Positions 31,485 through 62,408 are shown, counted from the stretch's first letter. The stretch is DNA of 64,000 nucleotides from an uncultured delta proteobacterium (GCA_963815145.1 CAWFFS010000027.1:448751-512750), one strand, 5' to 3'. Made by a program: numbers and translations. The notes: a model not told the origin generated them from the letters alone.

Positions 31485-31545
31485 GGCCACGAAGGTCATT
31501 GTCCTCGAAACAGGGACGTGATGTCGTGGCCTTTTTTTTATTTTT
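31485..31545 (+). terminator. Terminator-like hairpin element, GCCACGAAGG family copy 1, inside the divergent ppiD / TonB-receptor intergenic region
   Basis: AAAAAGGCCACGAAGGUC...GUCGUGGCC followed by U8. Confidence 0.55.
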
Positions 31546-31611
31546 AAAAGCCCAAAAATTACACAATATGGATGATTGTTATTAAAAAATTGACTGATAA
31601 ATAAAAATGTT

Positions 31612-31760
31612 GGAGGACGGCGTGCACCGGCCAGGGTTTCCACCGTCCTCCGTGTGAAGTGCTCCTGGGAAAGGAATACTTCAAAGTGATTGATACCACT
31701 GCTTTCCTTTCCCGTCAAGGTGCCTCTCATTACTATTGTGAGAGGCACCGCGAGCACCTT
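31612..31760 (+). promoter_or_regulatory. Structured 5' leader (hairpin plus predicted three-way junction) upstream of the TonB-dependent receptor operon
   Basis: P0 is GGAGGACGG / CCGUCCUCC. P1 is AAGUGCUC / GAGCA(C)CUU and encloses P2 (GGGAAAGGAA / UUUCCUUUCCC) and P3 (GGUGCCUCUCA / UGAGAGGCACC). Confidence 0.4.
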
Positions 31761-31808
31761 ATGAGGTTTTAACAATAGGGTTGAAGATAAAAGGGAGAAA
31801 TTTATTCG

Positions 31809-33974
31809 ATGCGAATGTGGAAATGGAAACAGTGGAAGACAAGTGTTTTATTAATATTAATTATGCTTTCAATTCCGGCTATTGCCATGGCCGAACAGAG
31901 GGATATGAGTGAAGCAATCCAGAAACATCTGACTTCGGAAGAAATTGCACTGGAAGAGATCGTTGTGACTGCTGATGCGGGAATCAACCAGATGGACACC
32001 AAAGTGGGTATCAAGAAAATCGAAAAGGGCAAAAACATAAATATACCGGATGTACTGAAATCCGAACCGGACATAGACCTGAAACGAAGGTCTCTGGTGG
32101 GTGATACGACCGACAGCCTTGCCATAAGAGGTTTTACGGGTAACCGCATTATGCTTGATATCAACGGCAGGCCGGTAAACGCTTCGGGTGTTGTTGGCGG
32201 TTATTATATCGACTGGAGTACGATCCCCCTTGATAACATAGAAAAAATAGAACTGATCCGGGGCGGAAGCTCAGTCAGGTATGGAAACAATGCCCTGGGC
32301 GGTGTTGTAAACGTGATTACAAAAAAGCCCACGGAAAAACCCACATTGACATTCTACGGAACCTACAGTGTCGGGGACGGTATTGATTCCATACAGAACT
32401 ATCGCCTGACCCACACCTATAAAATCGGCCCCTTGGGCTATTCCCTGGCTGGCAGCTACCAGAAGGCCGATCCTTTTCTCTGGAATAATGATTTTAAGGG
32501 TAAAGATTTTTCAGCTTTCTTCGATCTTGATATGCCCCTGGACGGAGAATTTACCTTCGGTTTTCAGTATGCCGATTCCGATCGGGGATTTATCCGGGAA
32601 AACAGGGTTTCAGATGATCCCGGTAATCCCGGCTTCTATCAAAAAAAGGACGATAACTATCCCCTTGCCTTCGGGGAGACCTTCAGCCCCTATTCGGGCA
32701 CTGCCTTTATTCCGGGGCCAGGGGCGAGATGGAATAAAACCAAATACTATTTTGACGCCGGTTATTCGCAGCCCATTGGTGACGCGTTCATTGATTTCAA
32801 GGTCTACAAAAATATTGAAGACCGGAAAGAGAAAAATTATTCATCCGCTGATATCAACCCGGCATACCAGGATGGCCAGCTTGTGCTGGACAGGGATGTG
32901 GCATCGGATCGCTCCTATGGCGGAAATATTGAACTTAAAAAGCCTTTTAGTGACCATGAACTGCTCCTGGGCGCTCAGCACAAGGTCCTTGCTTATGGAG
33001 ACATAACCACCAATTATATAGATATGACCTATAATAACGCCCCCTGGGTGACCATGGCGAGCCTTTCAAACAAGCCGTCATCCGAAGGTGTGACCTGGGG
33101 ATATTATATGCAGGACACCTGGACGCTTTCGGATCGTTTGACCCTGACCGGAGGACTCAGGTATGACGATTACAGGAACAGAGCCATCAACGGCAGCACA
33201 TCGCCTGAACTGAAAGACAATGCCCTCACTCCCAAGCTCACCGGTACTTATATTATAAACGACAAAGATACCATTACCGCCTCGGCATACCAGGCACTGA
33301 GGACACCGGGATTACCGGAAACCTACTGGTGGGCCAACGGAGCAACCAAAGGCAATCCTGTCCTGACGCCTGAAAAGAATAATGCAATAGAGCTTTTTTA
33401 CCGGCATAGATTCAACGGGTCAGGGCTTATAAGGCTGTCTTCCTATTATTATGATGTAAAGGACTATATCATATTCCGCTTCGACCCCACATGGCGAGGT
33501 GTATACAATATTGACAAGGCTGAGATCTACGGTGCATCTCTGGATGGCATGACAGTTTTCAATGACCGGCTTTCAGGAAGGGCATCCGTGACCTTTCAGA
33601 AATCAAAGAAGAAAGGGGATATGTACGATACTGCCGGCCTGTCGGATGAAATAGACTATCTGCCCGAATGGAAGGCCAGCGGAGGGCTTGATATTAACCT
33701 GCCAAGACGTTCTGCCCTGAATATTTCTCTAAAGTATGTAGGAGAACGCAGTGCAATCTATGCATACAGCAGTGGATATCCGGCACAGGAGTTCTTCAAA
33801 CGCGTTGAACTTGACTCCTACTTAACTGCGGATATCAACCTTAAAATCCCCGTCAGTAAACACGCGGAATTCAACTGTTACATAGAAAACCTTTTTAACA
33901 AAGAATACGAAGAGCAGTTTGGCTATCCCATGTCCGGCCGTATTATCGGCGCAGCATTTAAACTGTCAATATAA
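31809..33974 (+). CDS. TonB-dependent outer-membrane receptor
   Basis: Signal peptide, plug-domain motifs (IEKIELIRGGSSVRYGNNALGGVVNVITKKP) and a 22-strand-barrel-sized C-terminal region. Confidence 0.9.
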   Translation: MRMWKWKQWKTSVLLILIMLSIPAIAMAEQRDMSEAIQKHLTSEEIALEEIVVTADAGINQMDTKVGIKKIEKGKNINIPDVLKSEPDIDLKRRSLVGDTTDSLAIRGFTGNRIMLDINGRPVNASGVVGGYYIDWSTIPLDNIEKIELIRGGSSVRYGNNALGGVVNVITKKPTEKPTLTFYGTYSVGDGIDSIQNYRLTHTYKIGPLGYSLAGSYQKADPFLWNNDFKGKDFSAFFDLDMPLDGEFTFGFQYADSDRGFIRENRVSDDPGNPGFYQKKDDNYPLAFGETFSPYSGTAFIPGPGARWNKTKYYFDAGYSQPIGDAFIDFKVYKNIEDRKEKNYSSADINPAYQDGQLVLDRDVASDRSYGGNIELKKPFSDHELLLGAQHKVLAYGDITTNYIDMTYNNAPWVTMASLSNKPSSEGVTWGYYMQDTWTLSDRLTLTGGLRYDDYRNRAINGSTSPELKDNALTPKLTGTYIINDKDTITASAYQALRTPGLPETYWWANGATKGNPVLTPEKNNAIELFYRHRFNGSGLIRLSSYYYDVKDYIIFRFDPTWRGVYNIDKAEIYGASLDGMTVFNDRLSGRASVTFQKSKKKGDMYDTAGLSDEIDYLPEWKASGGLDINLPRRSALNISLKYVGERSAIYAYSSGYPAQEFFKRVELDSYLTADINLKIPVSKHAEFNCYIENLFNKEYEEQFGYPMSGRIIGAAFKLSI

Positions 33975-33989
33975 CAGGAGGTTTTCAAG

Positions 33990-34781
33990 ATGAGTGATAT
34001 ACATGGGACATATTTTCGGCAGGAAAAATACAACGCCTTCTGGAACAGAATGGCGCTTCATTATCCTGATCCCTTTAATTCAAAGACACTTTCGGATACC
34101 AGCGAAGTTCTTTCTGTTGTTAAAGGCAAAGGGGTGGAAATATACGGGGCAGCCATACTGGATATCGGGTGCGGTACAGGGACCTATACGCTGCCCCTTG
34201 CCAGGGATGCAGCAATGGTTACAGGGCTTGATGATTCCACTCGAATGATCGAACGCCTTACTGCTTCCATATCCAATTCCTGTTTACAGAATGTCCGCAC
34301 TGTAATGGCCTCATGGAAGGATATAGACATCTTGCAGGCGGGCTTTGAGAAGGCCTTTGATATCGTATGGGCTTCTATGACCCCTGCTGTGAGGACTCCG
34401 GAGGATTTCATAAAACTGGAGAAATGTTCAAAGAACTGGTGTGTTTATATAGGCTGGGGTGGAAAAAGAGAAGACAGCTTAATGAAAGAGGTATTTGATC
34501 TGCACGGTCTTAAGTTTGGTCCACCGCCGGGTGTGACGGAGGCGTACAATATCCTGCTGCAATCAGGGAAAACACCGACTCTTGATTATTTTGAAACCTC
34601 ATGGGACTGGACCGGAAGTGTCGATGAGGCAATGGAGTATATGGAGTTCTTTATCGAAATGCAGGGCGGAAATCCGGATCGTGGCTTGATTGAAACGGCT
34701 CTTGGCAGGCATGAACGGCAGGGCATGGTTTCACACACAACCTATGCAAAGGAAGGTATAATGGTATGGCAGGTACCATAA
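33990..34781 (+). CDS. Class I SAM-dependent methyltransferase
   Basis: Motif I ILDIGCGTGTYTLPLA and post-I VTGLDDS. 263 aa. Confidence 0.75.
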   Translation: MSDIHGTYFRQEKYNAFWNRMALHYPDPFNSKTLSDTSEVLSVVKGKGVEIYGAAILDIGCGTGTYTLPLARDAAMVTGLDDSTRMIERLTASISNSCLQNVRTVMASWKDIDILQAGFEKAFDIVWASMTPAVRTPEDFIKLEKCSKNWCVYIGWGGKREDSLMKEVFDLHGLKFGPPPGVTEAYNILLQSGKTPTLDYFETSWDWTGSVDEAMEYMEFFIEMQGGNPDRGLIETALGRHERQGMVSHTTYAKEGIMVWQVP

Positions 34782-34816
34782 GAACTGTCCATGTAGCTTT
34801 GGGATAAAATTCAGGG

Positions 34817-35860
34817 ATGACAGTGAAATATTTATTACATAAAACAGGCCATGGCACCATCACAGCAGCCTATCTGAAACAGGTAAGACACAAACTGTCT
34901 CTCCTGGGGTTGCTTATGTGTGTAATAGCACTTGTTTCGGTTTATGCGATTGCAGCGGGATCCTATTATATTCCATTTAGAGAGGTTATGAGTACTCTGA
35001 TTGGATTCAGTGATAATACCACTCGCGTGGTGATTACCAACATAAGGATGCCAAGGATTGTTGCGGCGCTTTTTTGCGGATGGGGTCTTTCTCTTTCCGG
35101 ATTGACCATACAGTCCCTTTTAAAAAATCCCCTCGGCTCTCCCATAACACTCGGCATAAGTCAGGGTGCTGCCTTCGGGGCTGCTGTTGCAATCGTTGTG
35201 TTTGGCGCAGGGATGGTCTCGGTAACTGCTTCAGCTTTTGCAGGAGGAATGTCTGCCACAATTATCATTCTTGCACTTGCAAAATTTAAACGGCTTTCTC
35301 CCCTTGCAATTATTCTGTCAGGCACTGCACTTCATTCCCTGTTTCTTTCGGGAACTTATTTGATTCAATATCTTGCAAATGAGGCCGATCTTGCCAGGGT
35401 AGTGTTCTGGAGCTTCGGAGATGTCGCCCGTTCAAGCTGGATGGAGATATGGATTATGGCAGGGGGTGTCTTTATTCTTTCCCTGTTTCTTGGAGCATTC
35501 AGGTGGGATCTGAACGCCCTTGCTTCGGGAGAAGAGACTGCAAAGGGGCTGGGAGTGAGGGTCGAACAAATAAGGTTATCCGGAATGTTTATTGCCACAC
35601 TTGTAGCTGCACTGGCAACGGCCTTTCATGGGATTATAGGATTTCTTGGGTTGATTGCTCCTCACATGGCAAGACGTATTGTAGGTGAAGATCATTCGAT
35701 TTTAATTCTCTTTTCTGCTGTTCTGGGTGCCCTGCTGCTCCTTGTGGCCGATACACTGGGGCGCGTGTTTATCGGCTCAGGGTCATTACCGGTTGGTGTG
35801 ATCACATCATTCTTAGGCGCACCAATGTTTCTTTTTCTTTTAGCCAGGGAGGTGAAATGA
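34817..35860 (+). CDS. FecCD/BtuC-family ABC transporter permease
   Basis: 347 aa, about 9-10 TM helices, typical Gly-rich FecCD C-terminus (GVITSFLGAPMFLFLL). Confidence 0.9.
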   Translation: MTVKYLLHKTGHGTITAAYLKQVRHKLSLLGLLMCVIALVSVYAIAAGSYYIPFREVMSTLIGFSDNTTRVVITNIRMPRIVAALFCGWGLSLSGLTIQSLLKNPLGSPITLGISQGAAFGAAVAIVVFGAGMVSVTASAFAGGMSATIIILALAKFKRLSPLAIILSGTALHSLFLSGTYLIQYLANEADLARVVFWSFGDVARSSWMEIWIMAGGVFILSLFLGAFRWDLNALASGEETAKGLGVRVEQIRLSGMFIATLVAALATAFHGIIGFLGLIAPHMARRIVGEDHSILILFSAVLGALLLLVADTLGRVFIGSGSLPVGVITSFLGAPMFLFLLAREVK

Positions 35861-36609
35861 ATCTTGAAGTGACAAATATCCGGTTCTCCTATAACGGTCA
35901 CCAGGTATTAACCGATGTTACATTTTCTATCGAACCGGGGCAGGTGGTATGTGTCCTTGGCGTAAACGGGGCTGGCAAATCCACCTTGCTTAAATGTCTT
36001 AACCGCATACTGAAGCCCCAAACAGGGGTTGTACTGGCTGATGGTGATGATTTATTCCATATGGGTTCCAACAGAATAGCCCGCCTTATGGGGTATGTCC
36101 CCCAGCGACACCCTGAAACACAATCTACAGTCTTTGAAACAGTACTTATGGGGAGGAAACCTTATATTCAATGGTCTCTCGGGCAGGAGGATTATGCCAT
36201 TGTAGAAGAGACTATAGAGCAGATGCATATAGCTCATCTGGCTATGCGAAAGGTTTGTGATCTGAGCGGAGGTGAAATCCAGAAGGTAATAATAGCCAGG
36301 GCTCTTGCTCAGTCACCGGAGGTCCTGCTCCTGGATGAACCTACAAGTAATCTTGACCTTAAAAACCAGCTTGAAGTCATGAGGCTGGTTCGCAGTGTGG
36401 TTAAATCGAAGGGGCTGTCCGCAGTCATTGCCATTCATGACCTGAATATCGCCCTGCGGTTTGCTGACAGCTTTGTCTTTTTAAAAGAAGGGCAGATCCA
36501 TGAAATATGCAAAAAGAACGAGTTGTGTCCTGAGATGATCCACCAGGTTTATGGTGTGGATGTGGCATTGAGTGAAGTAAACGGGCACACCCTTGTGGTT
36601 CCTTTATAA
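35857..36609 (+). CDS. ABC transporter ATP-binding protein (FecE/BtuD type)
   Basis: Walker A GVNGAGKST, signature LSGGEIQ, Walker B LLLDEPTSNLD. 4-nt overlap with the permease gene. Confidence 0.9.
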   Translation: MNLEVTNIRFSYNGHQVLTDVTFSIEPGQVVCVLGVNGAGKSTLLKCLNRILKPQTGVVLADGDDLFHMGSNRIARLMGYVPQRHPETQSTVFETVLMGRKPYIQWSLGQEDYAIVEETIEQMHIAHLAMRKVCDLSGGEIQKVIIARALAQSPEVLLLDEPTSNLDLKNQLEVMRLVRSVVKSKGLSAVIAIHDLNIALRFADSFVFLKEGQIHEICKKNELCPEMIHQVYGVDVALSEVNGHTLVVPL

Positions 36610-36633
36610 GAACACACTGCATGGAGAAGCATC

Positions 36634-37731
36634 ATGAAGAAGTTCATTATATTTGTATGTTGTTTCATTTTAGGCATCCCATTGATATCCGGTGCCGCTG
36701 CATCAATAGATGTAACCGATATGGCTGGCCGTCATGTGACAACCCAGGTTAATCCGGGCCGAATCCTGTGCCTGGGTCCGGGTACCTTGCGTCTTATCGT
36801 ATATCTTCAGGCAGAATCCAGGTTAGTGGGTGTCGAAGATATGGAAAAGATGAATCCGGGCGGAAGGCCATATTGGATTGCACATCCGGAGCTTCATAAA
36901 CTCCCCCGGTGCGGCCCCGGAGGACCGGCGGGTATAGGTAAAAAACCGGACCTGGAAACAGTTCTTTCATTAAGGCCGGATATTATATTTACCACCTATA
37001 TGGAAGGAACAATGGCCGATGATATACAGAAGACACTCGGTATTCCGGTAATTGTATTGAGTTATGGAGAATTTGCGACTTTCGATGAGACGGTCTACAA
37101 ATCATTGCTTGTCGCAGGCAGTATCCTGGACAGGGAAAAACGTGCCAGTGATGTTGTCGCATATATCGAATCCCTGAGAAAAGACATGCTGAACCGAACC
37201 AGCGAAGTACCTGATGGGGCAAGGCCATTAGTGTATGTGGGCGGCATAGGTTACAAGGGGTCATACGGCATAGAAAGTACAGAGCAGAGTTATATCCCCT
37301 TTAAATGGCTCAACGCGGATAATGTATCCGAGCGTGTTAAGGCCACCACAGGCAGCCACGTATTCATGGATAAGGAAATACTCTTAAAATTGAATCCCGA
37401 TGTCATATTCATCGATGGCGGCGGTATAGATCTGGTAAAAGATGATTTCAGAAAAAAGCCAGAATACTACCGCACCCTGCGCGCCTTTTCCCGGCAGCAG
37501 GTATATACCCTGTTGCCATTCAACTGGTATGCAACCAACATCGGGACTGCCCTGGCAGATGCCTATGCCATAGGCAGGATCATTTATCCGAAGCGATTTA
37601 AAGATATCGATCCGGAGATCATGGCTGATGAGATATATAAGTTTTTACTTGGGACGCCTGTGTATAAGGATATGAAAAAAGCTTATGGCACTATAGGGCA
37701 AAAAGCACAGTTTAAATCACTGACTAATTAA
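36634..37731 (+). CDS. Periplasmic substrate-binding protein, class 8 (FhuD/BtuF-like)
   Basis: Signal peptide, 365 aa. The pattern RILCLGPG..R..VYL and PDIIF/PDVIFIDGG is typical of siderophore/corrinoid-binding proteins. Confidence 0.75.
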   Translation: MKKFIIFVCCFILGIPLISGAAASIDVTDMAGRHVTTQVNPGRILCLGPGTLRLIVYLQAESRLVGVEDMEKMNPGGRPYWIAHPELHKLPRCGPGGPAGIGKKPDLETVLSLRPDIIFTTYMEGTMADDIQKTLGIPVIVLSYGEFATFDETVYKSLLVAGSILDREKRASDVVAYIESLRKDMLNRTSEVPDGARPLVYVGGIGYKGSYGIESTEQSYIPFKWLNADNVSERVKATTGSHVFMDKEILLKLNPDVIFIDGGGIDLVKDDFRKKPEYYRTLRAFSRQQVYTLLPFNWYATNIGTALADAYAIGRIIYPKRFKDIDPEIMADEIYKFLLGTPVYKDMKKAYGTIGQKAQFKSLTN

Positions 37732-37733
37732 TA

Positions 37734-38378
37734 ATGGAGGAAACTATCATGGATGCAAAACAAATAATGGAAGGCGATAAGTTTAAAAAATGCGCTGACT
37801 TTCACGGCCATATCTGCCCCGGTCTTTCAATAGGATACAGGGCTGCCGAAACTGCCATGGGATGGCTCAGGGAAAATCGTTCTGAGGATGAGGAGATCGT
37901 TGCCATTGTAGAGACTGACGCCTGTTCTGCTGATGCGGTACAGGTCCTTACCGGCTGCACATTTGGCAAGGGCAACTTTATTTATAAGGATTACGGAAAG
38001 ATGGTGCTTACTCTCATGAGCCGAAATAGCGGTCAGGGCGTTCGTGTGGCAATGAAGGCCGGGACCTTTTCTCCCGATGATATCCATCAAATGCTTCTCA
38101 GGAAGGTAATGAACGGGTCAGCCAGTGAGGAAGAAAGAAAGCAGTTTCAGGACCTCCATTTCAAACGGAGTTGTGACATTCTTGAGAAGCCTGAAGAAGA
38201 TCTGTTTACCATCAAGCCTGTTCAAATGGCACTGCCTTCAAAAGCACAGATAGCGCCATCCGAACCCTGTGCGCTTTGCGGGGAACCAACCATGCGCACA
38301 AAGCTGCAAGAATCTGTCCACGGCCTGATCTGTAGAGGTTGCGCGGAACAGTCTACAGCATGGTATAACACATTGTAA
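37734..38378 (+). CDS. FmdE-family protein with C-terminal Cys4 zinc ribbon
   Basis: FHGHICPGLSIGYRAA motif of the FmdE domain. C-terminal CALCGEP...CRGC. Confidence 0.75.
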   Translation: MEETIMDAKQIMEGDKFKKCADFHGHICPGLSIGYRAAETAMGWLRENRSEDEEIVAIVETDACSADAVQVLTGCTFGKGNFIYKDYGKMVLTLMSRNSGQGVRVAMKAGTFSPDDIHQMLLRKVMNGSASEEERKQFQDLHFKRSCDILEKPEEDLFTIKPVQMALPSKAQIAPSEPCALCGEPTMRTKLQESVHGLICRGCAEQSTAWYNTL

Positions 38379-38402
38379 AACTATTTTAGAGAGTGTAGTG
38401 AG

Positions 38403-38825
38403 TTGCCAAAACGAATTTGTATTATAGATGGACAGGGAGGTGGAATCGGAGCAGCTGTGATCCGGTCCATAAAGAGCAACTTTGAAGAATCAATTACGCT
38501 GATTGCTCTGGGTACAAACACCATAGCAAGCGCCAATATGTCGAAGGCTGGAGCCAACCTTGTTGCAACAGGTGAAAATTCCATATGCAGGACAGTGCCC
38601 GAAGCTGACATAATAATAGGTCCTGTGGGGATAGCATGGCCTAATGCCATGATGGGGGAGGTGACTACTGAAATTGCCGAGGCGGTTGTATCAAGCCCTG
38701 CATATAAAGTGTTACTGCCTTTCACTCAGGAGCCTGTTGAGATAATAGGCGTAGTAAAAGAACCACTACCCCACATGATTGAAAAAGCTGTAAACCTGAT
38801 TAAGGAGGTTTTAAAAAATGTGTGA
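38403..38825 (+). CDS. DUF3842-like protein
   Basis: The N-terminal IIDGQGGGIGAAVI motif and about 140 aa match my recollection of DUF3842. TTG start. Confidence 0.5.
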   Translation: MPKRICIIDGQGGGIGAAVIRSIKSNFEESITLIALGTNTIASANMSKAGANLVATGENSICRTVPEADIIIGPVGIAWPNAMMGEVTTEIAEAVVSSPAYKVLLPFTQEPVEIIGVVKEPLPHMIEKAVNLIKEVLKNV

Positions 38826-39006
38826 AGCAAACGCATATCTTATTAAAGACGGTGAGGAGATTCTTATAATGGAATCTGTAGACATGGTCACGCCTGAAGA
38901 AGAGGAGAGTTGGCATCTGGTAAATATTTTCGGCGAGCAGAAAGACGTAAAAGCCAAAATCAGGGAAATGAACCTGGTTGATCACAGAATCTTGTTTGAA
39001 GCGTAA
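38818..39006 (+). CDS. CooT-family small nickel-binding protein
   Basis: 62 aa beginning MCEANAYL. Cys2 is the Ni ligand in characterised CooT. Overlaps the upstream gene by 8 nt. Confidence 0.6.
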   Translation: MCEANAYLIKDGEEILIMESVDMVTPEEEESWHLVNIFGEQKDVKAKIREMNLVDHRILFEA

Positions 39007-39111
39007 TAAATCCAGGAATATATCTGCAGAAGCTGATTATTTTTGATTTCGGGGCGAAGTCCGAATAGTTTTTAAATATTTAACCATCATTTCATTGCAA
39101 TCTGAATAAAA

Positions 39112-39165
39112 GGCCACGAAGGTCTGTTGTATCAGTCATGATACACGCCCTTGCGGCCTTTTTTA
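39112..39165 (+). terminator. Terminator-like hairpin element, GCCACGAAGG family copy 2
   Basis: AAAAGGCCACGAAGG...CCUUGCGGCC followed by U6, with an inner stem GUAUCA / UGAUAC. Confidence 0.6.
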
Positions 39166-39192
39166 TGAACACCGATAAAAGGAAAACCATAC

Positions 39193-40179
39193 ATGGATAA
39201 AACCGAAGTCCTGCGCTCTATTAAGTATGACCTGGTAGAGTATATCCAGGCAAAGGTTTCGGTAGACTTTGGCAATGCCGGACAAATTCCCATTTCCTTT
39301 ATCTATAATAAAAAGACCTATGTAATCAAAGAAGTACTGGGCAGGTTTTTAAAGAGAGATGTTTTTTTATCCAACGGATTTCTGGTGACAGTCAATGATG
39401 GTGATGTTTTTTATATTTATTTCCATACCCGGAATTTTGCTCAACATATGCAAATATGTGAAGGAAACTGGATTTTATGTTTCAGGATACTTAATGACCA
39501 TGAGTTGATGGCTTTTTACAGGGAGGATCGAAAGGTGCTTTTAAATATGACAATGAAGATGCTCGTGGATTTCCACGGACATATTTGCCCTGATCTGGTT
39601 ATAGGTGCAAAACTCAGCGAGTATATCCAGCAACTGGTCTCTGAAACCAGTGGGTTGGATGTCGGTATATCGATTCTGGCACAGAATTGTACTTCTGCCA
39701 TTGATGCTATCCAGGTCCTGCTGGGTACAACCTTTGGAAACCAACGCCTGCAGGTCCTGGATTTTGGGAAACACATCTATTCCCGCTTAATCATCGATGC
39801 TGAAAAAAGTTACATGTTTTCCATGAGGAAGCAGTATTATGGCGATGAAGATGAATTCGAAAACCTGGAACAGAAGATTTTAAACAGCCAGATAACACTG
39901 GAGGAAGCAGTCAATTTTCAAAAATTAATGGACAGACGTATAGAGACGCTTTTTTCTCTGACACCTGCGGAGCTTTTTGGCTGTGACAGCATTGAAAGGG
40001 GACAGCCATTCTATGAAATACCAAGTATTTACCTGACATGCAGCGAGTGCGGACATCAGGTGGTAAAAAATCGATCAATAAATTACCACAATAAAATCTA
40101 TTGCGTCTCATGTTTTCAAGATGTCTGTAAAGAATGTAAACACTACAACGTTCAATGGAAGGAAAAAAACAATGGATAA
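39193..40179 (+). CDS. Fusion protein: unknown N-terminal domain (~115 aa), FmdE domain and C-terminal zinc ribbon
   Basis: FHGHICPDLVIGAKLSEY (FmdE motif). C-terminal CSECGH...CVSC...C.EC. Confidence 0.65.
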   Translation: MDKTEVLRSIKYDLVEYIQAKVSVDFGNAGQIPISFIYNKKTYVIKEVLGRFLKRDVFLSNGFLVTVNDGDVFYIYFHTRNFAQHMQICEGNWILCFRILNDHELMAFYREDRKVLLNMTMKMLVDFHGHICPDLVIGAKLSEYIQQLVSETSGLDVGISILAQNCTSAIDAIQVLLGTTFGNQRLQVLDFGKHIYSRLIIDAEKSYMFSMRKQYYGDEDEFENLEQKILNSQITLEEAVNFQKLMDRRIETLFSLTPAELFGCDSIERGQPFYEIPSIYLTCSECGHQVVKNRSINYHNKIYCVSCFQDVCKECKHYNVQWKEKNNG

Positions 40180-40375
40180 TAACACAAAGGCAAGGATACA
40201 GATTGAACACTGGCTGAAACACAACAATTCTCATATTCAGGAATATGAGGCTTTTGCCTCCTACCTTGAAAAAGCCGGAAAAGAGGAGAGTGCTTTGTAT
40301 ATCCGGGAAATGGCTACCCTGGTTATCCAAAGCAATGAAAAACTGGAAATGGCTCTTGAGAAACTGGTGGATTAA
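40172..40375 (+). CDS. Small helical protein with an H-x3-H-x3-H ladder
   Basis: 67 aa from ATG 40172, overlapping the upstream stop by 8 nt. The segment EHWLKHNNSH places His at i, i+4 and i+8. Confidence 0.4.
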   Translation: MDNNTKARIQIEHWLKHNNSHIQEYEAFASYLEKAGKEESALYIREMATLVIQSNEKLEMALEKLVD

Positions 40376-40397
40376 ATATGAGAGAGATTGTTTTGTC

Positions 40398-43935: not shown

Positions 43936-43994
43936 TCATTTATTACCCTGCCTGGGACAGCAAAAAAGCTGTCCCAGACAGGGTAATTTTAACT

Positions 43995-48624: not shown

Positions 48625-48646
48625 ATACAATTGGAGATTAAATAAA

Positions 48647-51740: not shown

Positions 51741-51855
51741 TGATGCTCTTTTAATTTTCTTGACACAAAAGGTTTGCCTCATATACTCTTTCATAAAAAG
51801 GGATTTCTTATCAATCAGGCTAAAATTTTAATCCCTTTGATTTTAGAGATATAAC

Positions 51856-52122: not shown

Positions 52123-52255
52123 GTACATTAAAAATCCTGTAATCCATTAAATGGACCCTCGACCCATGGAGTATAATATTTGTACACCCGCAGGGTGATG
52201 TGCAGCTTTATGGGTATCTGTACTATTTACAATTTGAATATACGGAGGTGTTATT

Positions 52256-53656: not shown

Positions 53657-53676
53657 TAATAAAAGGAGAAATACCT

Positions 53677-54609: not shown

Positions 54610-54611
54610 AT

Positions 54612-55370
54612 ATGGAAAGGATGCCCGCCCTTTCGGGCGGGTATATAAAACAAACTATGAATGCACCACTTATCACATTAGACAATCTTAGCATCGGTTA
54701 TAACAGCCAGCCCGTGTGTTCAGGGATTTCACTCTCCATTGCCCGTGCCGGCTATACAGCCATACTTGGCGCCAATGGTTCGGGCAAATCCACCCTGCTC
54801 AAGACACTTCTCGGCCTGCTTCCGCCTGTCGCAGGAAGAGTTGAAAGCTCATTAAGGGACAGAGCAATCATATTCGGTTATGTGCCGCAATCGGCACAAT
54901 TCGACCCTATGTATCTGCTTACTGGCTTCGACGTGGCCCTGATGGGGGTGTATGGACGTATCAGGCCTGGCAGGTTTGTTCCTCAACATGAGCGCGAGTT
55001 TACAAAAGAATGCATGAATGCCACAGGAGCCGCTGATCTTTCCCGGAAGTGTTTCGCAGAACTCTCAGGCGGCCAGAAACAGCGCGTACTTATTGCCAGA
55101 GCCCTTGCCACGCGTCCGGATGTTCTTGTGCTGGATGAACCGACTGCCGGTATTGACCGGGAAACCACAAAATCGGTACTTGCGTTCATTGACCGGATAA
55201 ACAAGGAACAGAAAATTACAATTCTGCTCGTCACCCATGACTTCGCAGCCGTGCGCCGCCACGCGCAATACGTCATCTGGTTTTATGAAGGTAAGCTATT
55301 TCACGGTGAAACATCTACGCTTCTCACTGCCGACCGGATGGCGGAAATATTTGAGACAGGAGTTGAATAA
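54612..55370 (+). CDS. Metal ABC transporter ATP-binding protein (ZnuC/TroB type)
   Basis: Walker A GANGSGKST, signature LSGGQKQR, Walker B VLVLDEPTAGID. Confidence 0.9.
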   Translation: MERMPALSGGYIKQTMNAPLITLDNLSIGYNSQPVCSGISLSIARAGYTAILGANGSGKSTLLKTLLGLLPPVAGRVESSLRDRAIIFGYVPQSAQFDPMYLLTGFDVALMGVYGRIRPGRFVPQHEREFTKECMNATGAADLSRKCFAELSGGQKQRVLIARALATRPDVLVLDEPTAGIDRETTKSVLAFIDRINKEQKITILLVTHDFAAVRRHAQYVIWFYEGKLFHGETSTLLTADRMAEIFETGVE

Positions 55371-55372
55371 AT

Positions 55373-56275
55373 ATGGAAATACTGCATCAAATCCTATCGC
55401 CTGATTTTCTTCTGCGAAACTCGCTGTATACAAGCGTATTTATCGGTTTTGTGTGCCCTCTTCTCGGAGTATTCCTCGTATTGCGCCGGCTGGTGTTTCT
55501 AGGGGTTGCTCTCCCTCAGATATCTTCGACAGGTGTTGCTGTTGTGCTCTCACTCCCAATGTGGCTGGGGTTCAGTCTTTCAGGCAGCACGCACAGCATG
55601 CATGCGTTTGCCTTTGCCGGATCGATAACCTTTTCGCTGATCGCTATCCTGATACTTGCATTTCTGGAACGGCGCGGGAGCGGACAGCCCGAAGGGCGGC
55701 TTGGTACTGCATATGTGGTAGCCGCCGCACTGAGTATCCTGCTTCTATCGAAGAATCCCTATGGCGAGATCGGATGGCTCAATATGCTGAAAGGAGAAGT
55801 CATCACCATCTCCAATTTTGATCTCCTGCTGACAGCGACAACTCTTGCCCTTGTTATTGCCATTCTGGCAATATTCCGCAAAGAGTTTCTCTTGGTTTCC
55901 TTTGACAGGGAGATGGCATTGACGCTGCATAGAAATGTCGTCCTTTGGGATGTGTTGCTATATATGCTGATCGGCATTACAGTTTCCATGGCCGTACTCA
56001 GCGTGGGCCCGCTCATCTCCTTCGGATTTCTTTTGATTCCTGCTATGACTGCCCACACGATCGCCCGCAACATGCGTCTATTTACGGTGTTGGCATCTTT
56101 GATCGGTGGTATAGCCGCCTTTTTAGGCTTTTGTGTTGCATATGCGTGGGATCTGCCTGTCGGACCAACTGATGTCGTTCTCCTCGGTGTGCTGTACTCA
56201 ATAACATGGGTAGTCGTGAGGATTCTTCCCGGAGGTTTTCGGTCCTCAGTGCGAAAAGGGAGAGCACCTGACTAG
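55373..56275 (+). CDS. Metal ABC transporter permease (ZnuB/TroC type)
   Basis: 300 aa, about 8-9 TM helices, adjacent to the ATPase gene. Confidence 0.85.
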   Translation: MEILHQILSPDFLLRNSLYTSVFIGFVCPLLGVFLVLRRLVFLGVALPQISSTGVAVVLSLPMWLGFSLSGSTHSMHAFAFAGSITFSLIAILILAFLERRGSGQPEGRLGTAYVVAAALSILLLSKNPYGEIGWLNMLKGEVITISNFDLLLTATTLALVIAILAIFRKEFLLVSFDREMALTLHRNVVLWDVLLYMLIGITVSMAVLSVGPLISFGFLLIPAMTAHTIARNMRLFTVLASLIGGIAAFLGFCVAYAWDLPVGPTDVVLLGVLYSITWVVVRILPGGFRSSVRKGRAPD

Positions 56276-56396
56276 CGCATGTAAAAATACAGATATAAAT
56301 AGGAAAAGTGTTAGCAACTTCGACTTTTCTTTGGCATCCCATCTGCGGTTGAGAGCCCGAAATATTGGATCCTCATTCTTCATCGGGACAGATTCC

Positions 56397-56609
56397 TCAC
56401 TTCTTCAGAATGATCGGTAGTAAAAGTGCTAGCACCAGTCCGAGAAAAAGAAATAAAAAGAAGGTAAAACCGCCAGTCCTGAGAGATGCTTTTTTAATAT
56501 TCCTCTTGTCGGGATAATGGCGACTGTATTCCTGGTATGTGACAATATAGGCCATAACCGCTGCTATAATACTAAAAATTACAGAGATGAAAAACAGTGC
56601 TACAACCAT
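56397..56609 (-). CDS. Small two-TM membrane protein
   Basis: 70 aa with two hydrophobic helices flanking a basic loop. No motif recognised. Confidence 0.35.
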   Translation of the reverse strand: MVVALFFISVIFSIIAAVMAYIVTYQEYSRHYPDKRNIKKASLRTGGFTFFLFLFLGLVLALLLPIILKK

Positions 56610-56633
56610 ATTGTTTATCCATATATGGTTATC

Positions 56634-57912
56634 TCAAGATACCAGCGGATTGCCGAATACGGCCGTTTTCCCCAGTTCGAGATCTATCTCAAGCAGCCTG
56701 TTATACTTTGAAATGCGCTCGCTGCGGCATAGAGAACCTGTCTTGATCTGCCCTCCGCCCATTGCAACGGAAAAGTCGGCAATAAAGGGGTCTTCCGTTT
56801 CGCCTGAACGATGTGAGACAACAAACCTCCAGCCCGCTTGGCGACAGAGATTAATTGCCTCAATTGTTTCAGTGACCGTGCCGATCTGGTTCAGCTTTAT
56901 GAGAACAGCATTGGTTGTTTTTTCCTTAATACCTCGCTCAATAAATCGTGTGTTGGTCACATAGAGGTCATCTCCGACGATCTGAATCTTTTCACCCAGT
57001 GCGACTGTTTGCTCTCGAAATCCTTCCCAGTCATTTTCATCAAGACCGTCCTCGATGGAAACAATCGGGTATTTTTCGACCCAGACTCGAATAGAGATCC
57101 GTGAGCTCAGGACTTTTCTTCTTGCCTTGTCCTGATTTACTCAGATTGTAGATCCCATGGTCAAAAAAAGAGCTTGCAGCCGGGTCAAGGGCGATAGCTA
57201 TATCTTTTCCGGGTATGTAGCCGCAGGTGTCTATGGCTTCAACAATGACCTCACAGGCTTCATCATTGCTTTTCAGGTTTGGCGCGAATCCGCCTTCATC
57301 GCCTACATTCGTGTTATAACCTTTCTTTTTAAGGATTGATTTGAGGGCGTGAAATGTTTCGGTTCCGTAGCGCAGGGCTTCCGCAAAAGTTGGAGCCCCG
57401 ATGGGCATCACCATGAATTCTTGAAAATCCACGCTGTTATCGGCATGTTTACCTCCATTTAGTATATTCATCATGGGCATTGGGACGCGAAAGGCTCCTG
57501 ATCCACCAAGGTAGTGATACAGTGGCAACCCCGCGGCCTCCGCCGCTGCACGGGCAACAGCCATGGAAACCCCCAGAATGGCATTAGCACCGAGTTTTCC
57601 CTTGTTGGAAGTCCTGTCCAGGTCTATCATCATGCGATCGACTTCAGTCTGGCGGGACGCGTCCATTCCTATCAGATGGGGAGCAATTAGTTCATTGACA
57701 TTCCTTACTGCCTTTAAAACTCCTTTTCCTCCATACCGCCCTTTATCACCGTCGCGTAGTTCAACTGCCTCGTGCTCGCCGGTCGATGCCCCGGAAGGCA
57801 CGGAAGCAGAAACGGTCAAGCAGTTATCCAGTGTAAGGAACACACGGATGGTCGGATTACCGCGTGAGTCCAAAATCTCCATAGCACGTATAGCGGTTAT
57901 TTTAGAGTTCAT
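56634..57912 (-). pseudogene. eno: Enolase with a 1-nt frameshift near 57080..57082
   Basis: The N-terminal ORF ([12 protein letters not shown]..., [10 protein letters not shown]) and the C-terminal ORF ([14 protein letters not shown]) are enolase. The intervening [11 protein letters not shown] reads in the second frame from the shift site with no stop. Confidence 0.9.
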
Positions 57913-57999
57913 AGTACATACTCCATTTTTAAATTGGATTTTGATCCGGTCATAAAACTGTTTTCAGGGCGCGGCCTGGCAGAAGCTTATTATCGGTAA

Positions 58000-58385
<386 letters not shown>

Positions 58386-58525
58386 GATCTTTCTCCTCTT
58401 AAAATTGGTTATTGTATAATTTTAACATGATTATTTCCGAAACCAAATAAATTTTAATGGATATGCAAAAAATGTCATTAGTATCATTATGATCCCTTTT
58501 TTTATTTTCCCATTCCGCGTTCCTG

Positions 58526-59296
58526 TTATTTCATTTCCTTAAATTCGACCCACATAACCGCACCTATCTCCACATCTTTATCCTCTCCATTGTGTTTTAT
58601 TTTTTTATCTGATGTGTTTAACCCGGCAAATCCCCACCATCCGGCCTTTGGAACTGCATATGTAAAAACACCATTTTTGTCTGTCTTGACCACCTGGGTG
58701 ACAAAATAGTCATTTGGCGCCTTAAATTTCCTGTCTTTATTGTAGTACTCTATTTCAACATCCGTTCCGGGTGAAGGCCTGCCGTCCACAAGCACTGTCC
58801 CCTGAAAGACATTTCCTGCATAGAGCCCGAAGGGTCTTGTAAGCGGCACAATCTCGGTTTTTAATCCTAGCGGCTCATCCCAGCCGGCGTCTTCGCCAAA
58901 GGCTGCAACGACTGTTTTTGTATAGTGAATGATATAGCAATCCTCGGTAGGTTCCCAATAGGGTTTGGGCTCCATATAGAACCAGTACACACCGGGTCTG
59001 TTTATTTTGTGGGTGGCTTTCCATGCCTTCCTGTTCATGACCTTTATTTCCTTTAGAGAAGGGATGAGATCGGTCTTTTTACCATTGAGAACAAATCCGA
59101 ATTTTGCAGGTTTTTCCATATCCATGCCCTCCATTTCAAAGGGATGCGAAAAGGATAATGTCAGGGAAATATCCCTTGCATCTCCCTGCATTACCATGCT
59201 GTTTGAGGGAATCAGCATGCCGAAATGGGCAAAGCTGTTGCTGCTTATCATTAAAAACAGAATTGACAACAGGGTTGTGATACTAATTTTTTTCAT
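58526..59296 (-). CDS. nikK: DUF4198 / CbiK(COG5266)-type periplasmic component of a Ni/Co ECF uptake system (NikK-like)
   Basis: Signal peptide ending SFA-HFGML. Later G..LEIVPL, G.V..DG.P and KTDKNGVF, typical of DUF4198. ATG at 59296 has a GGAG RBS. Confidence 0.6.
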   Translation of the reverse strand: MKKISITTLLSILFLMISSNSFAHFGMLIPSNSMVMQGDARDISLTLSFSHPFEMEGMDMEKPAKFGFVLNGKKTDLIPSLKEIKVMNRKAWKATHKINRPGVYWFYMEPKPYWEPTEDCYIIHYTKTVVAAFGEDAGWDEPLGLKTEIVPLTRPFGLYAGNVFQGTVLVDGRPSPGTDVEIEYYNKDRKFKAPNDYFVTQVVKTDKNGVFTYAVPKAGWWGFAGLNTSDKKIKHNGEDKDVEIGAVMWVEFKEMK

Positions 59297-59314
59297 AGTT
59301 ACTTTCTCCTTTTT

Positions 59315-59382
59315 ATAAAAAAATATAAAAGCCACAAAAGCAGTGCAGGCATACTTCATGTCTGTAAAAGCCTTCGTGGCTG
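59315..59382 (-). terminator. Terminator-like hairpin element, GCCACGAAGG family copy 3 (proximal in the nikK leader)
   Basis: The minus strand reads AGCCACGAAGGC...GCUUUUGUGGCU, then UUUUAUAUUUUUUU. It ends about 20 nt before the RBS. Confidence 0.55.
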
Positions 59383-59508
59383 ATGGTCCTGTAATTTCTG
59401 ATTGATATTTTTAAAACGTTTGTGAATCAGGACTTCATGTCCCGATCCATAAATAAAAAAGCCCCTTTAACCCCTGAACTTTGTGTCCCCCGTGGCAAGA
59501 AACAGATA

Positions 59509-59568
59509 CAAAAAAAAACCACAAAATCTTTTTTGGAATTTAGAGTTTCAAAAAAGCCTTCGTGGCTG
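59509..59568 (-). terminator. Terminator-like hairpin element, GCCACGAAGG family copy 4 (distal in the nikK leader)
   Basis: The minus strand reads CCACGAAGGCUUUUUUG...CAAAAAAGAUUUUGUGG (about 17 bp), followed by U9. Confidence 0.6.
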
Positions 59569-59621
59569 GATTTTCATTATTTGATAGTACGTTTTAAAAG
59601 GCTTCATGCCTTTTGACGCAG

Positions 59622-59649
59622 AATATAACAGTATATTTTGTTATGTCAA
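59622..59649 (-). promoter_or_regulatory. Sigma70-like promoter with an embedded palindrome (nikK leader)
   Basis: The minus strand reads TTGACA, 16 nt, TATATT. The spacer contains ATAACA-N8-TGTTAT. Confidence 0.5.
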
Positions 59650-59987
59650 TAATATTTTATTTCCGATCTGAAATCCATACAGGGAATAACAGACAGGAAG
59701 CCACCTTCTTCTGGCTTCTTCGGCCCGGATATCAGACCCAATGTTGTTAACTTAAGGAATTCTCCATACAAAAGTATGTGAAGTAAATAGAAAAATAGTA
59801 AAAATAGCGACTGCATTAGTAGTAGGAAAACTGATACCTATTAAGAGAATTGATACGATAAGATCTCTTACCATGTATGAGGCTCAAAAATACATTCTCA
59901 AACCCATAACATTTTTTGGTGAAAAAGTTGAAAATAATAAGAATTCGTGATTCTGAAATAATTACAGACAAAAAGGAGTACAGGGTG

Positions 59988-60068
59988 ATGAAACGCTTGA
60001 CTGGCTTTTTTATGCTAATGATTACAAAAATCTTGTTTGCGGGCTGCATGTCACCAGTTAAAATATAA
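59988..60068 (+). CDS. Candidate 26-aa mini-lipoprotein or leader peptide upstream of the ZIP transporter
   Basis: MKRLTGFFMLMITKILFAGCMSPVKI. AAGGAG RBS 8 nt upstream. Lipobox LFAG|C. It ends 21 nt before the ZIP start codon. Confidence 0.3.
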   Translation: MKRLTGFFMLMITKILFAGCMSPVKI

Positions 60069-60089
60069 TTCAACAAATAATTTTTCGGC

Positions 60090-60915
60090 ATGAATCTGAC
60101 AATATTAAAAATCATCTTTTCTGTTGCTGTTTTTTTTACAGGCGCTTTTGGAGCACTTTTTCCCTGGAGTATGAAAAAGGCATCTTCCGGAGGCCGCTTC
60201 ATGATCTGGGGAGATACTCTTGCGGGGGGTGCGCTCTTGGGCGCCGGGCTTATACACCTGCTCAGCGGCAGTGTCGAAGGTTTCCAAAATCTGGCCCCCG
60301 GATTGGGCTATCCGCTGGCATACCTCCTTACAGGAGCCGGATTTCTTCTGATCCTGTTGATCGAAGCTGTGCTTATGGCCGACCACGATCCCAATAATTC
60401 CCCCCTCCACTGCGGTATCGGAGGCGCCGGCCATGAGGTCGGTGCAGGGCCTCAGACGCAAGAACGACACCCCTATACATTCATTCTTCTTTTAGTGCTA
60501 TCAGTGCATTCAGTTATACTCGGCCTGGCGTTGGGGGCACAGACCTCCCTGACGAGCGCACTTGCTGTTTTTATCGCCATTCTCTCCCACAAGGCAATGG
60601 CGGGCTTCGCGCTTGGGGTCAGCTACAGGCGGGTAAATTCTCCGCTAAGTAAAACAGTACCTATTGCAGCGCTTTTTGCCAGTATGACACCACTGGGGAT
60701 TCTGACGGGCACGGCCGTCAACATGATGATCTCTCCTGCCAATCGTTTGTGGTTCGAGGTGATCTTTAATGCCAGTTGGAGCCGGAACTTTCATCTACAT
60801 TGCCACGCTGGATATCATCCGGACGGAGTTTGAACTTCCGGGAGACAACTGGCAAAAATGGCTGCTGGCCACCTCAGGATTCGGATTCATGTCGATTCTC
60901 GCCATATGGATTTAG
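60090..60915 (+). pseudogene. ZIP-family divalent metal transporter (ZupT-like) with a 1-nt frameshift near 60772
   Basis: TM-rich with a His-containing cytoplasmic loop and the HKAMAGFALG motif. The conserved C-terminus GAGTFIYIATLDII... continues in the +1 frame to TAG 60913..60915. Confidence 0.8.
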
Positions 60916-60990
60916 TGCTCTTAAAGGTTAATTTCCGTTCCAGCTAAAGTCATTTCTTCATGTCCCGATCCATAAATAAAAAAAGTTCCT

Positions 60991-61644
60991 TTAACCTTGA
61001 GCCCTGGGTCCTGCGCCTTTAGCCATGTTCTTCTTTGATTTCATATAGGCAATAACCCCCATCAGCCCAAAAATATAACCTATCCCGCCAATGACCTCTG
61101 TAACAGTGGGACCTTTGTCCTCCCTGAGCAATGCCAGTTCTTTTACAACCGGTTCAAGTTTTGCATCAAGGGCCTTATCCAGCTCCTTCCGCAGTCGATC
61201 CTGCCCGTATGCTACCCGGGCCGGGCTTTCCGACTTAACATTGGTATCAGTATCAGCATTCGCTTCTGCCGCCGGGACCTTGTCTGATACAAACTCCGAT
61301 TTCTTAAACAGATACTCGGCACCATGCCCCATGGATGCATCCAGGACAATCCTGAGGTCAGCTATTTTCGGTATTTTAAATGAAAAATCCCCGTTCTCAT
61401 CGGTCTTACCGCTCACAAGCTCTTTTCCTTGCATGTCAAAGACCTTTACAGTTCCATTCTTGACCTTTATATTTCCGGGAAAATAACTTTCAGTATGGAT
61501 CATATCCCCTTCGGCCCATGCGAACAGGTAGACCTTGTGGGCATAGGCCGTGGAAACATAAAAAAAGAAAACAAACATAAATGTGAGTGCAGTAAAAAGC
61601 CTGTATTTTTTATTTCTCTTTGATCTTTTTTCACTGGTTTTCAT
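60991..61644 (-). CDS. nikL: Two-TM accessory component of the Ni/Co ECF transporter (NikL-like)
   Basis: N-terminal TM, a periplasmic transthyretin-like segment (HKVYLFAW..G.....V.V.D..G......KTDENGDFSF) and a C-terminal TM. Overlaps the nikM stop by 14 nt. Confidence 0.5.
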   Translation of the reverse strand: MKTSEKRSKRNKKYRLFTALTFMFVFFFYVSTAYAHKVYLFAWAEGDMIHTESYFPGNIKVKNGTVKVFDMQGKELVSGKTDENGDFSFKIPKIADLRIVLDASMGHGAEYLFKKSEFVSDKVPAAEANADTDTNVKSESPARVAYGQDRLRKELDKALDAKLEPVVKELALLREDKGPTVTEVIGGIGYIFGLMGVIAYMKSKKNMAKGAGPRAQG

Positions 61645-62245
61645 AAACCGCCTCCAGAATATCCGGTTTTACTTTTTTCAGGAACCTTATGCAGAAAAAG
61701 GTAATTATCCCTTCGATCAGCATTATTGGAAGATTGGCCAGCACAATGAGTTTGGCGACCGTCAGGAATTGCTCCCCTGTAAAATAAAGAGAAAACGCGA
61801 CCATAATAGCGCTTAAAAACACCGCTCCGAATCCGCATAAAAAGGATGCAATAGATGATGCTATAACATTATTACCTTTGACCGCCCGCCCGAACACAAG
61901 GTAGCACACAACTGCCGGAAGGGCCATGTTCAGCGTATTAACGCCAAGAGTAGTAAATCCACCATACTGAAACAGTATGGCCTGGAGCAACAAGCCTACC
62001 AGGATAGCAGGAAAGGCGGCCCAGCCCAGAAATATGCCCACGAGCCCGTTCAAAACAAGGTGTATGCTGCTTGGCCCCACAGGCACATGAATAAGTGATG
62101 CGACGAAAAATCCTGCCGAGAGTATGGCAACCTGCGGAATGCTGTCGTAATCTATCTTTTTGAGACCGATCGTTGTTCCGGCAACTGTAAGGGCTGCCCC
62201 TGAAAGCAGCACGGGTGCAGTAAGAATTCCTTCAGAGATATGCAA
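61631..62245 (-). CDS. nikM: CbiM/NikM substrate-capture component of an ECF-type nickel/cobalt transporter
   Basis: N-terminal MHISEGIL (the metal-ligating Met1-His2 motif of CbiM/NikM). 204 aa, about 6-7 TM helices. Confidence 0.85.
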   Translation of the reverse strand: MHISEGILTAPVLLSGAALTVAGTTIGLKKIDYDSIPQVAILSAGFFVASLIHVPVGPSSIHLVLNGLVGIFLGWAAFPAILVGLLLQAILFQYGGFTTLGVNTLNMALPAVVCYLVFGRAVKGNNVIASSIASFLCGFGAVFLSAIMVAFSLYFTGEQFLTVAKLIVLANLPIMLIEGIITFFCIRFLKKVKPDILEAVYENQ

Positions 62246-62340
62246 TTCATTAATCCTTTCGCTTAAAATAACCCGGCTTCGTTCTTACGAGCTATGCCAT
62301 GGTTTATTTTGTATTCATACTGAAGTAAGGCGCAGTGCTG

Positions 62341-62408
62341 AATATAAAAATAAAAAAGCCACAAAAACTTTTTCTGGAATCATAAATTCCTAAAAGCCTT
62401 CGTGGCTG
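62341..62408 (-). terminator. Terminator-like hairpin element, GCCACGAAGG family copy 5 (nikM leader)
   Basis: The minus strand reads AGCCACGAAGGCUUUU-(GGAAU...AUUCC)-AAAAAGUUUUUGUGGCU, then U7AU5. Confidence 0.6.

Follow-up and report, generated by a model that had tools for sequence, protein, structure and literature searches.

Nickel import is controlled by DNA-binding repressors such as NikR, and to our knowledge only one RNA element, the NiCo riboswitch, has been linked to nickel and cobalt; its action is on efflux. This riboswitch (czcD), a metal-binding aptamer with four helices, turns on genes for efflux (PMC11672702), and the delta-proteobacterial NikR operator, GTGTTAC-N13/14-GTAACAC, controls nikMQO, nikK and nikL (PMC545781). 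Here we consider a stretch of 64,000 nucleotides (nt) from an uncultured delta proteobacterium (GCA_963815145.1, CAWFFS010000027.1:448751-512750), referred to at its full length as the window, which carries five copies of a hairpin element overlapping a terminator. With moderate confidence we read this element as a cis-acting, factor-dependent antitermination switch, placed either in the leader of an operon for Ni/Co acquisition or between the sub-operons of such an operon.

The window contains five exact copies of the 10-mer GCCACGAAGG (at 31486 and 39113 on the plus strand and at 59371, 59557 and 62397 on the minus strand); by our own arithmetic, chance would give about 0.12 in 128 kb, both strands counted. 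When up to one mismatch is allowed, there are eight matches against a shuffle mean of 2.49, and 0 of 100 shuffles reach eight. In all five copies the 10-mer forms the 5' side of a long terminator stem, which ends in GYGGYY and is followed by a U-run; the stem is G+C-rich, lies directly 5' of the U-run, as in intrinsic terminators, and has a folding energy of −30 to −52 kcal/mol. The fold z-scores are −4.5 to −6.9 in four of the five copies and −2.1 in copy 2. Every window position was scored, with filters off, by a covariance model (R1) that draws on 118 homologues; the matches of R1 are exactly the same five copies (E 1.6e-10 to 1.2e-06), with no sixth copy in the whole window, where, after the copies' own reverse strands, everything else has E > 0.2. 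The initial annotation of this DNA had described five hairpins of one terminator architecture, and in this it was correct; the A-tract that it placed before the motif is present in copies 1 and 2 and absent from copies 3–5, which have CAUCA, AUCCA and AUUCA there.

The terminator 5' arm overlaps in all copies with a local hairpin, P2, of four base pairs (bp) and a pentaloop, with the consensus R-GCC-A[C>U,A,G]GAA-GG-Y. In the 118-sequence alignment, 87% of the cells of the terminator helix are paired, and the variable base of the P2 loop is compensated in the 3' arm in 118 of 118 sequences (CG 107, AU 4, UA 3, GC 2, UG 2). The G-U pairs frequent in this helix point to selection on this RNA strand. 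Positions −1 (A/G) and +12 (U/C), which form a mutual pair in P2 only and not in the terminator, covary as well (AU 50, GC 34, GU 14, unpaired 20; Fisher p 3.7e-6, phylogeny ignored). The terminator and P2 are mutually exclusive folds, both backed by covariation. The competition between the terminator and a local GCC-ACGAA-GGC fold had been suggested from the window sequence at the outset, and the covarying fourth pair in P2 bears it out; stem covariation, then left to be checked, is found among the 118 homologues for the terminator helix and P2 alike. P2 alone has a free energy of −3 to −4 kcal/mol, and the best fold in which P2 is forced to form is 6–20 kcal/mol less stable than the terminator conformer. 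Since the terminator is much more stable and P2 is weak, the unaided RNA should terminate.

A scan for the pattern GCCACGAAGGYY-N24-38-GYGGYYTTT, with one genome per species, yielded at least 120 loci (designated by L numbers); GCCACGAAGG is fixed by construction in this pattern-selected set. Among the matches listed, at least about 98 loci have a real hairpin and a U-run, the remainder being chance matches in GC-rich coding DNA, and according to the record titles about 71 loci bear Desulfobacterota-type names, 9 belong to Nitrospirota, 1 to NC10 and 10 to Firmicutes, with 7 unclassified. There are one to three elements per locus, and three cultured species carry the element: Desulfococcus multivorans (CP015381.1, at about 393.9 kb; L123, 9354-9410), Desulfacinum infernum DSM 9756 and Desulfosoma caldarium. 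The element is widespread in sulfate reducers, Nitrospira and some Firmicutes, and this cross-phylum spread means that it is not a genome-specific repeat. A protein-selected, "unbiased" set consisted of 80 metagenomic loci picked solely for a NikK relative and then searched with R1: the element lies within 300 nt upstream of nikK in 46 of 79 loci, and a median of 31.5 nt separates its end from the start codon. The core CCACGAAGG is kept in 37 of the 45 distinct elements of this set, the variants mostly affecting loop position 2 (AUGAA, AAGAA) or the outer stem (ACC...GGU). A group of near-identical nikK homologues, several of them from human-gut metagenomes, has no element upstream (L179–L189, L193, L197, L200, L204, mostly contigs of human-gut and other ENA metagenomes); the existence of such an element-free group of close NikK relatives suggests that the RNA control is lineage-restricted.

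P2 is usually accompanied by partner hairpins, P1 and/or P3, whose loops, (A)NGAA with a C-G closing pair, are as in P2. P1 lies 29–104 nt 5' of P2, and P3 lies at the terminator tip, 0–13 nt after P2 (median 5). By our own definitions of these hairpins, P1 is present in 58% of the pattern-selected set, versus 6–7% in three backgrounds (shuffles, reverse complements and 293 further terminators from these loci), and P3 in 27%, versus under 2% in shuffles and reverse complements; P1 or P3 is found in 73%. The protein-selected nikK set gives 62% for P1, 58% for P3 and 84% for either. In the window, copies 3, 4 and 5 have a second hairpin 30–43 nt upstream (32–48 nt between the core stems), which carries the same loop sequence on another stem (GGC-AYGAA-GCC or GGGAC-AUGAA-GUCC). 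No conserved sequence was found in the P1–P2 linker. That the (A)NGAA loop is conserved on variable stems argues for an RNA rather than a DNA feature. Some elements without P1 have a promoter-like site immediately 5' of P2 (L020, L033, L110, L120), and a small C-G-closed tetraloop hairpin with the loop UGAA, GGAA, AGCA or AGGA sits at the terminator tip in L020, L110 and the P1-less L076, L092 and L120. Tandem elements 5' of one gene are formed by copies 4 and 3 and also occur in L106. As to the anatomy, the initial annotation had recognized P2 and the terminator and had missed the same-loop partners P1 and P3.

The element is co-oriented with, and usually 15–100 nt 5' of, genes for CbiM/NikM, NikK, the TonB receptor, FmdE, NikA-like proteins and DUF3842-CooT. 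The first co-oriented open reading frame (ORF) after the element was scanned against Pfam in 88 cases among the matches listed. It encodes a TonB-dependent receptor in 15 of these, CbiM in 14, DUF4198 (NikK) in 10, FmdE in 8, a Phenol_MetA_deg outer-membrane protein in 4, a periplasmic binding protein (Peripla_BP_2) in 3, a methyltransferase in 3, and FecCD, SBP_bac_5, DUF3842, TP_methylase and an ECF S-component in 2 each. Neighbourhood clustering adds CbiQ, ABC ATPases, ExbBD, NikL and CooT. The check for enrichment upstream of nik, cbi, TonB, FmdE and CooT genes in relatives, which had been proposed, gives a gene-specific placement across about 100 genomes. In Firmicutes (L074 Oscillospiraceae, L077, L116) a gene that we read as LarE-like from its N-terminus, without a Pfam run, follows the element, ECF S-components with no substrate assigned are also preceded by it, and a TrmO/TsaA-like gene occurs in six loci (L008, L023, L040, L053, L073, L118); these three kinds of genes may be members of the nickel regulon.

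For the antitermination switch, we infer default termination, the existence and nature of a factor, and a metal signal. The nascent RNA would fold P2 first, usually joined by one or two (A)NGAA hairpins, P1 upstream and P3 downstream. Once made, the 3' arm (..CCUUCGUGGC) would invade P2 and give a helix of 12–16 bp, capped by P3 and followed by the U-run, that is, an intrinsic terminator, so that termination is the predicted default. For read-through, a factor would have to keep P2 folded, together with P1 and/or P3, and prevent the 3' arm from invading. Identical loops in variable number and spacing look like the sites of a multimeric RNA-binding protein, and the factor would most likely be such a protein, recognizing the repeated (A)NGAA loops by an ANTAR-like logic. 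As it is importers that are regulated, Ni/Co scarcity is the condition under which we expect an active factor and induction of the uptake genes. An attenuator common to a Ni-acquisition regulon was the leading hypothesis of the initial annotation, and the comparative data fit it, given the cross-phylum conservation 5' of Ni/Co uptake genes.

Several points weigh against the proposed switch. The covariation statistics ignore phylogeny, and about one quarter of the pattern-selected elements and 16% of the nikK set have no P1 or P3 recognizable by our definition. Conditional read-through and the Ni/Co signal are deduced from gene content alone. No candidate RNA-binding regulator recurs in all phyla within the 8-kb neighbourhoods, and the ANTAR signature, sought with a crude regular expression, is absent among the 3402 neighbourhood ORFs and the window. 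Nor did the Nitrospirota subset or the Firmicutes subset show a locally conserved regulator.

With regard to the identity of the factor, it is conceivable, if rather unlikely, that the (A)NGAA hairpins are sites of a nickel-sensing protein to which no RNA binding has so far been ascribed, the candidate being the CooT family of small Ni-binding beta-barrels, possibly together with its constant partner DUF3842, in a TRAP-like attenuation or antitermination that depends on metal and replaces NikR in many anaerobes. The DUF3842-CooT pair is found in 10–15% of the 8-kb loci, directly behind the element (L037, L082, L096; CooT alone in L036) or directly before the next one (window copy 2, L048, L086, L125, L126), so that the position of copy 2 3' of CooT recurs in the last four loci; in L125 a HicA-type toxin-antitoxin gene pair lies between DUF3842 and CooT. 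Desulfococcus multivorans has a stand-alone DUF3842-CooT operon behind the element. The window CooT keeps Cys2 and matches PDB 6FAN, and several sources label the CooT family 'predicted RNA-binding protein'. A structure search with the CooT model gave no significant RNA-binding neighbour and matched only CooT crystal structures, on which ground CooT was rejected as an RNA binder; DUF3842, whose AlphaFold model (pLDDT 89) has a plain, generic Rossmann-like fold, was rejected for that fold. No CooT was seen in the Nitrospirota loci. Both proteins may simply be regulon members. Independently of any such role, DUF3842-CooT appears as a conserved two-gene module tied to the element and far from CODH genes, in the window and also in L091 and L123.

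A true riboswitch, in which the loops of P2 and of P1 and/or P3 would bind Ni2+/Co2+ or a metabolite and shift the balance between P2 and the terminator without a protein, is a possible though less probable explanation. Near-invariant loop and stem nucleotides over three phyla, with no co-conserved adjoining protein gene, speak for it; tandem copies are known for riboswitches, and the design of two hairpins with a variable linker has a precedent in guanidine-II. However, the conserved information is limited to hairpin loops of 3–5 nt, the number (1–3) and spacing of partner hairpins vary in a manner more typical of protein sites, and a metal-stabilized P1–P2 contact would induce the import of that same metal, which is the wrong sign for homeostasis. 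The initial annotation had recognized no known riboswitch class, and there is indeed no Rfam match at E ≤ 10, mini-ykkC and NiCo included.

It is improbable that the elements are constitutive intrinsic terminators or insulators between operons, sharing a sequence inherited with the Ni clusters and having no conditional role. They are structurally good terminators, several of them bidirectional owing to the A-rich 5' flank, and for some the directly preceding gene is co-oriented, as with CooT before copy 2, an SDR gene before copy 5, and the elements between sub-operons in L125/L126. At copy 5 the initial annotation had seen no upstream gene to terminate, which is incorrect, as the co-oriented SDR gene ends just before the promoter. 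Yet a constitutive terminator could do without a 5' arm of which 9 nt are invariant from phylum to phylum, and a covarying local hairpin with same-loop partners would be superfluous to it. Moreover, many elements are preceded by a promoter and followed by the first gene, whose start codon comes about 30 nt past the U-run, and the gene families accompanying the element are varied and in varied orders, which is not simple synteny.

The 3' ends of trans-acting paralogous small RNAs (sRNAs), genome-specific REP or mobile repeats, and a DNA inverted-repeat operator can together be given hardly any weight: a promoter with hairpins and a terminator would give a transcript of 100–130 nt, five copies lie within 31 kb of one genome, and the arms are an inverted repeat at the DNA level, but the placement directly 5' of coding genes is fixed and co-oriented. 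The sRNA reading raised at the outset is unlikely because translation signals, a ribosome-binding site and a start codon, come a median of about 31 nt after the U-run. The REP-like repeat, also raised there, is refuted by the cross-phylum, gene-specific distribution, with all five window copies at Ni/Co uptake loci and with one to three copies at each locus of about 100 species, not an amplification in one genome; the motif is missing from the other terminators of these loci. The operator was rejected on account of the G-U pairs and of the arm spacing, which varies from 24 to 38 nt.

Table 1. Positions of the elements, their partner hairpins and neighbouring features in the window.
Feature	Position	Strand	Description	Score or match
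Copy 1	31480-31538	+	P2 GGCC-ACGAA-GGUC overlapping the terminator 5' arm, plus U-run	R1 54.4 bits, E 1.6e-10
Copy 2	39107-39165	+	P2 and terminator, between CooT and the FmdE-fusion gene	R1 E 1.3e-07
Copy 3	59323-59386	−	P2 AGCC-ACGAA-GGCU and terminator; second of tandem pair	R1 E 1.2e-06
Copy 4	59510-59572	−	P2 and terminator; first of tandem pair	R1 E 1.3e-08
Copy 5	62350-62412	−	P2 and terminator, 5' of cbiM/nikM	R1 E 7.9e-09
P1 of copy 1	31398-31413	+	CAUGGC-AGAA-GCCAUG, 73 nt 5' of P2	
Hairpin 5' of copy 2	39048-39065	+	UUCGGG-GCGAAG-UCCGAA, P1-like (has CGAAG) but atypical, uncertain	
P1 of copy 3	59423-59449	−	11-bp stem, AUGAA loop with C-G closing pair (GGGAC-AUGAA-GUCC)	
P1 of copy 4	59596-59614	−	AAAAGGC-AUGAA-GCCUUUU, near predicted transcription start	
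P1 of copy 5	62442-62456	−	AAGGC-ACGAA-GCCUU	
Promoter-like site 5' of copy 1	31355-31383	+	TTGACA-17-CAAAAT	consensus match only
Promoter-like site 5' of copy 4	59622-59649	−	TTGACA-16-TGnTATATT	11/12 match
Promoter-like site 5' of copy 5	62467-62494	−	paralogous to the site 5' of copy 4	
Gene cluster 3' of copy 1	31809-39006	+	TonB receptor, methyltransferase, FecCD, ABC ATPase, periplasmic binding protein, FmdE, DUF3842, CooT	
DUF3842-CooT module	38403-39006	+	two-gene module	
CooT gene	38818-39006	+		
FmdE-domain fusion protein gene	39193-40179	+	328 amino acids, 3' of copy 2	
nikK-like gene	58526-59296	−	DUF4198, 3' of copies 4 and 3	
nikL	60991-61644	−	3' of copy 5	
cbiM/nikM	61631-62212	−	3' of copy 5	
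SDR gene	62503-63396	−	co-oriented, ends just 5' of the copy 5 promoter	
Second structured RNA	31608-31760	+	in the TonB-receptor leader, after copy 1	
Enolase gene	56634-57912	−	split across two reading frames	
Cys-rich ORF	58227-58385	−	52 amino acids, 11 Cys, directly 3' of nikK	no Pfam or NCBIfam match
Membrane-protein ORF	60090-60915	+	247 amino acids, split across two frames	no Pfam confirmation

The features of the window are listed in Table 1. Copy 1 is 274 nt from the TonB-receptor start codon, the end of copy 2 is 31 nt from that of the FmdE-fusion gene, and the nikK start lies 30 nt downstream of copy 3. Homologues of the FmdE-fusion gene directly follow the element in L008, L083 and L093. 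The atypical hairpin 5' of copy 2 could alternatively terminate the CooT operon. The promoter and leader of copies 4 and 5 are duplicated over about 170 nt, and their promoter-like sites are the best of the region. Both of these promoters contain an inverted repeat, ATAACA-N8-TGTTAT, between −35 and −10, the spacing of which is at odds with the delta-proteobacterial NikR box; it could be a DNA operator and a second control layer. The R1 scan found no element at the FeoAB, ZnuABC and ZIP metal-transporter genes of the window.

In the TonB-receptor leader of the window the terminator element is followed by a second conserved structured RNA, which is also found between the element and the TonB-receptor start in L066, L109, L072, L098, L121, L105 and L112. 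It consists of a long hairpin, GGGAAGGCAGC...ACCGGCCARGG...GCUGCCUUCCC, with compensatory changes in 4 of 10 pairs, and then GUGAAG and further conserved blocks; it has no match in Rfam at E ≤ 10 and may be a separate riboswitch-like element in tandem. The Cys-rich ORF 3' of nikK may encode a small metal-binding protein. The split enolase gene and membrane-protein ORF, the latter of ZIP type in our own reading, are due to frameshifts or assembly errors; in the Logan contig L001, from the same region, it is the ABC ATPase gene that is split, which is intact in the window.

Desulfobacterota, Nitrospirota and Firmicutes depend heavily on Ni enzymes, for example, hydrogenases and CODH/ACS. If the proposed switch is real, nickel homeostasis would gain a layer of RNA control, in the form of a conserved leader switch 5' of NikMNQO/NikKL, TonB-dependent and CooT genes, and the element would mark a regulon that includes unexplained genes: those for FmdE-domain proteins, DUF3842, CooT outside CODH operons, methyltransferases and TrmO-like proteins. 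The element is a defined bait for a sensor search, and the cultured carriers make the question directly testable.

Of the known systems, the NikR operators serve the same kinds of genes as the element, but NikR acts on promoter DNA. A search of the 300 nt upstream of 102 elements showed no NikR box of the delta-proteobacterial type, and these lineages may have the RNA element in place of NikR control. The NiCo riboswitch shares with the element a control at the RNA level tied to Ni/Co homeostasis; the element bears no resemblance to it, has no Rfam match and stands 5' of importers. Searches of the window and 18 loci against Rfam 15 at gathering and permissive thresholds returned only tRNAs, one cobalamin riboswitch and spurious terminator-driven matches; the cobalamin riboswitch (RF00174 or related) has no match at the elements, its single match lying elsewhere (L044, 6441-6628).

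Guanidine-II riboswitches have ACGR tetraloops closed by G-C pairs, kiss via C-G pairs and control guanidine exporters, mostly at the level of translation. What guanidine-II (mini-ykkC) has in common with the element is a pair of small hairpins that share a short conserved loop and are joined by a variable linker, and the P2 loop ACGAA includes ACGA. The element differs in having pentaloops, in its partner loops, mostly AGAA, UGAA and AAGAA, which are unable to kiss via C-G pairs, and in its genes, which are Ni/Co importers and not those of guanidine export or detoxification.

The targets of ANTAR proteins (EutV, NasR, AmiR) are likewise small hairpins with stems of at least 3 bp and a common conserved loop, one of which overlaps the terminator 5' arm, so that holding it prevents termination. 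The eut ANTAR consensus, AGC-AANGRR-GCU (PMC3369931; PMC8934654), is reminiscent of the AGCC-ANGAA-GGCU of the element. The P2–P3 spacing of 0–13 nt is similar to the ANTAR linker of 5–12 nt, whereas the P1–P2 spacing of 29–104 nt is much longer. ANTAR loops are hexaloops with A1 and G4, whereas the loops of the element are ANGAA or NGAA, one or two bases shorter and with the G as third or second base, hexaloops such as AACGAA being rare (L028, L078); its partner hairpin, unlike that of ANTAR targets, can lie upstream, or downstream inside the terminator. A review of antiterminators (PMC12591593) mentions no ANTAR system for nickel. In view of the shorter loops, the longer P1 linker and the lack of an ANTAR signature nearby, we do not file the element as an ANTAR target. 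In the literature searched, including a 2004 study of delta-proteobacterial regulons, a 2024 metallostasis review, a 2024 study of nickel in cable bacteria and the 2025 antiterminator review, neither the element nor RNA control of Ni import is described, though literature outside this range may hold a description. We regard the element as an apparently undescribed class of terminator/antiterminator leader switch.

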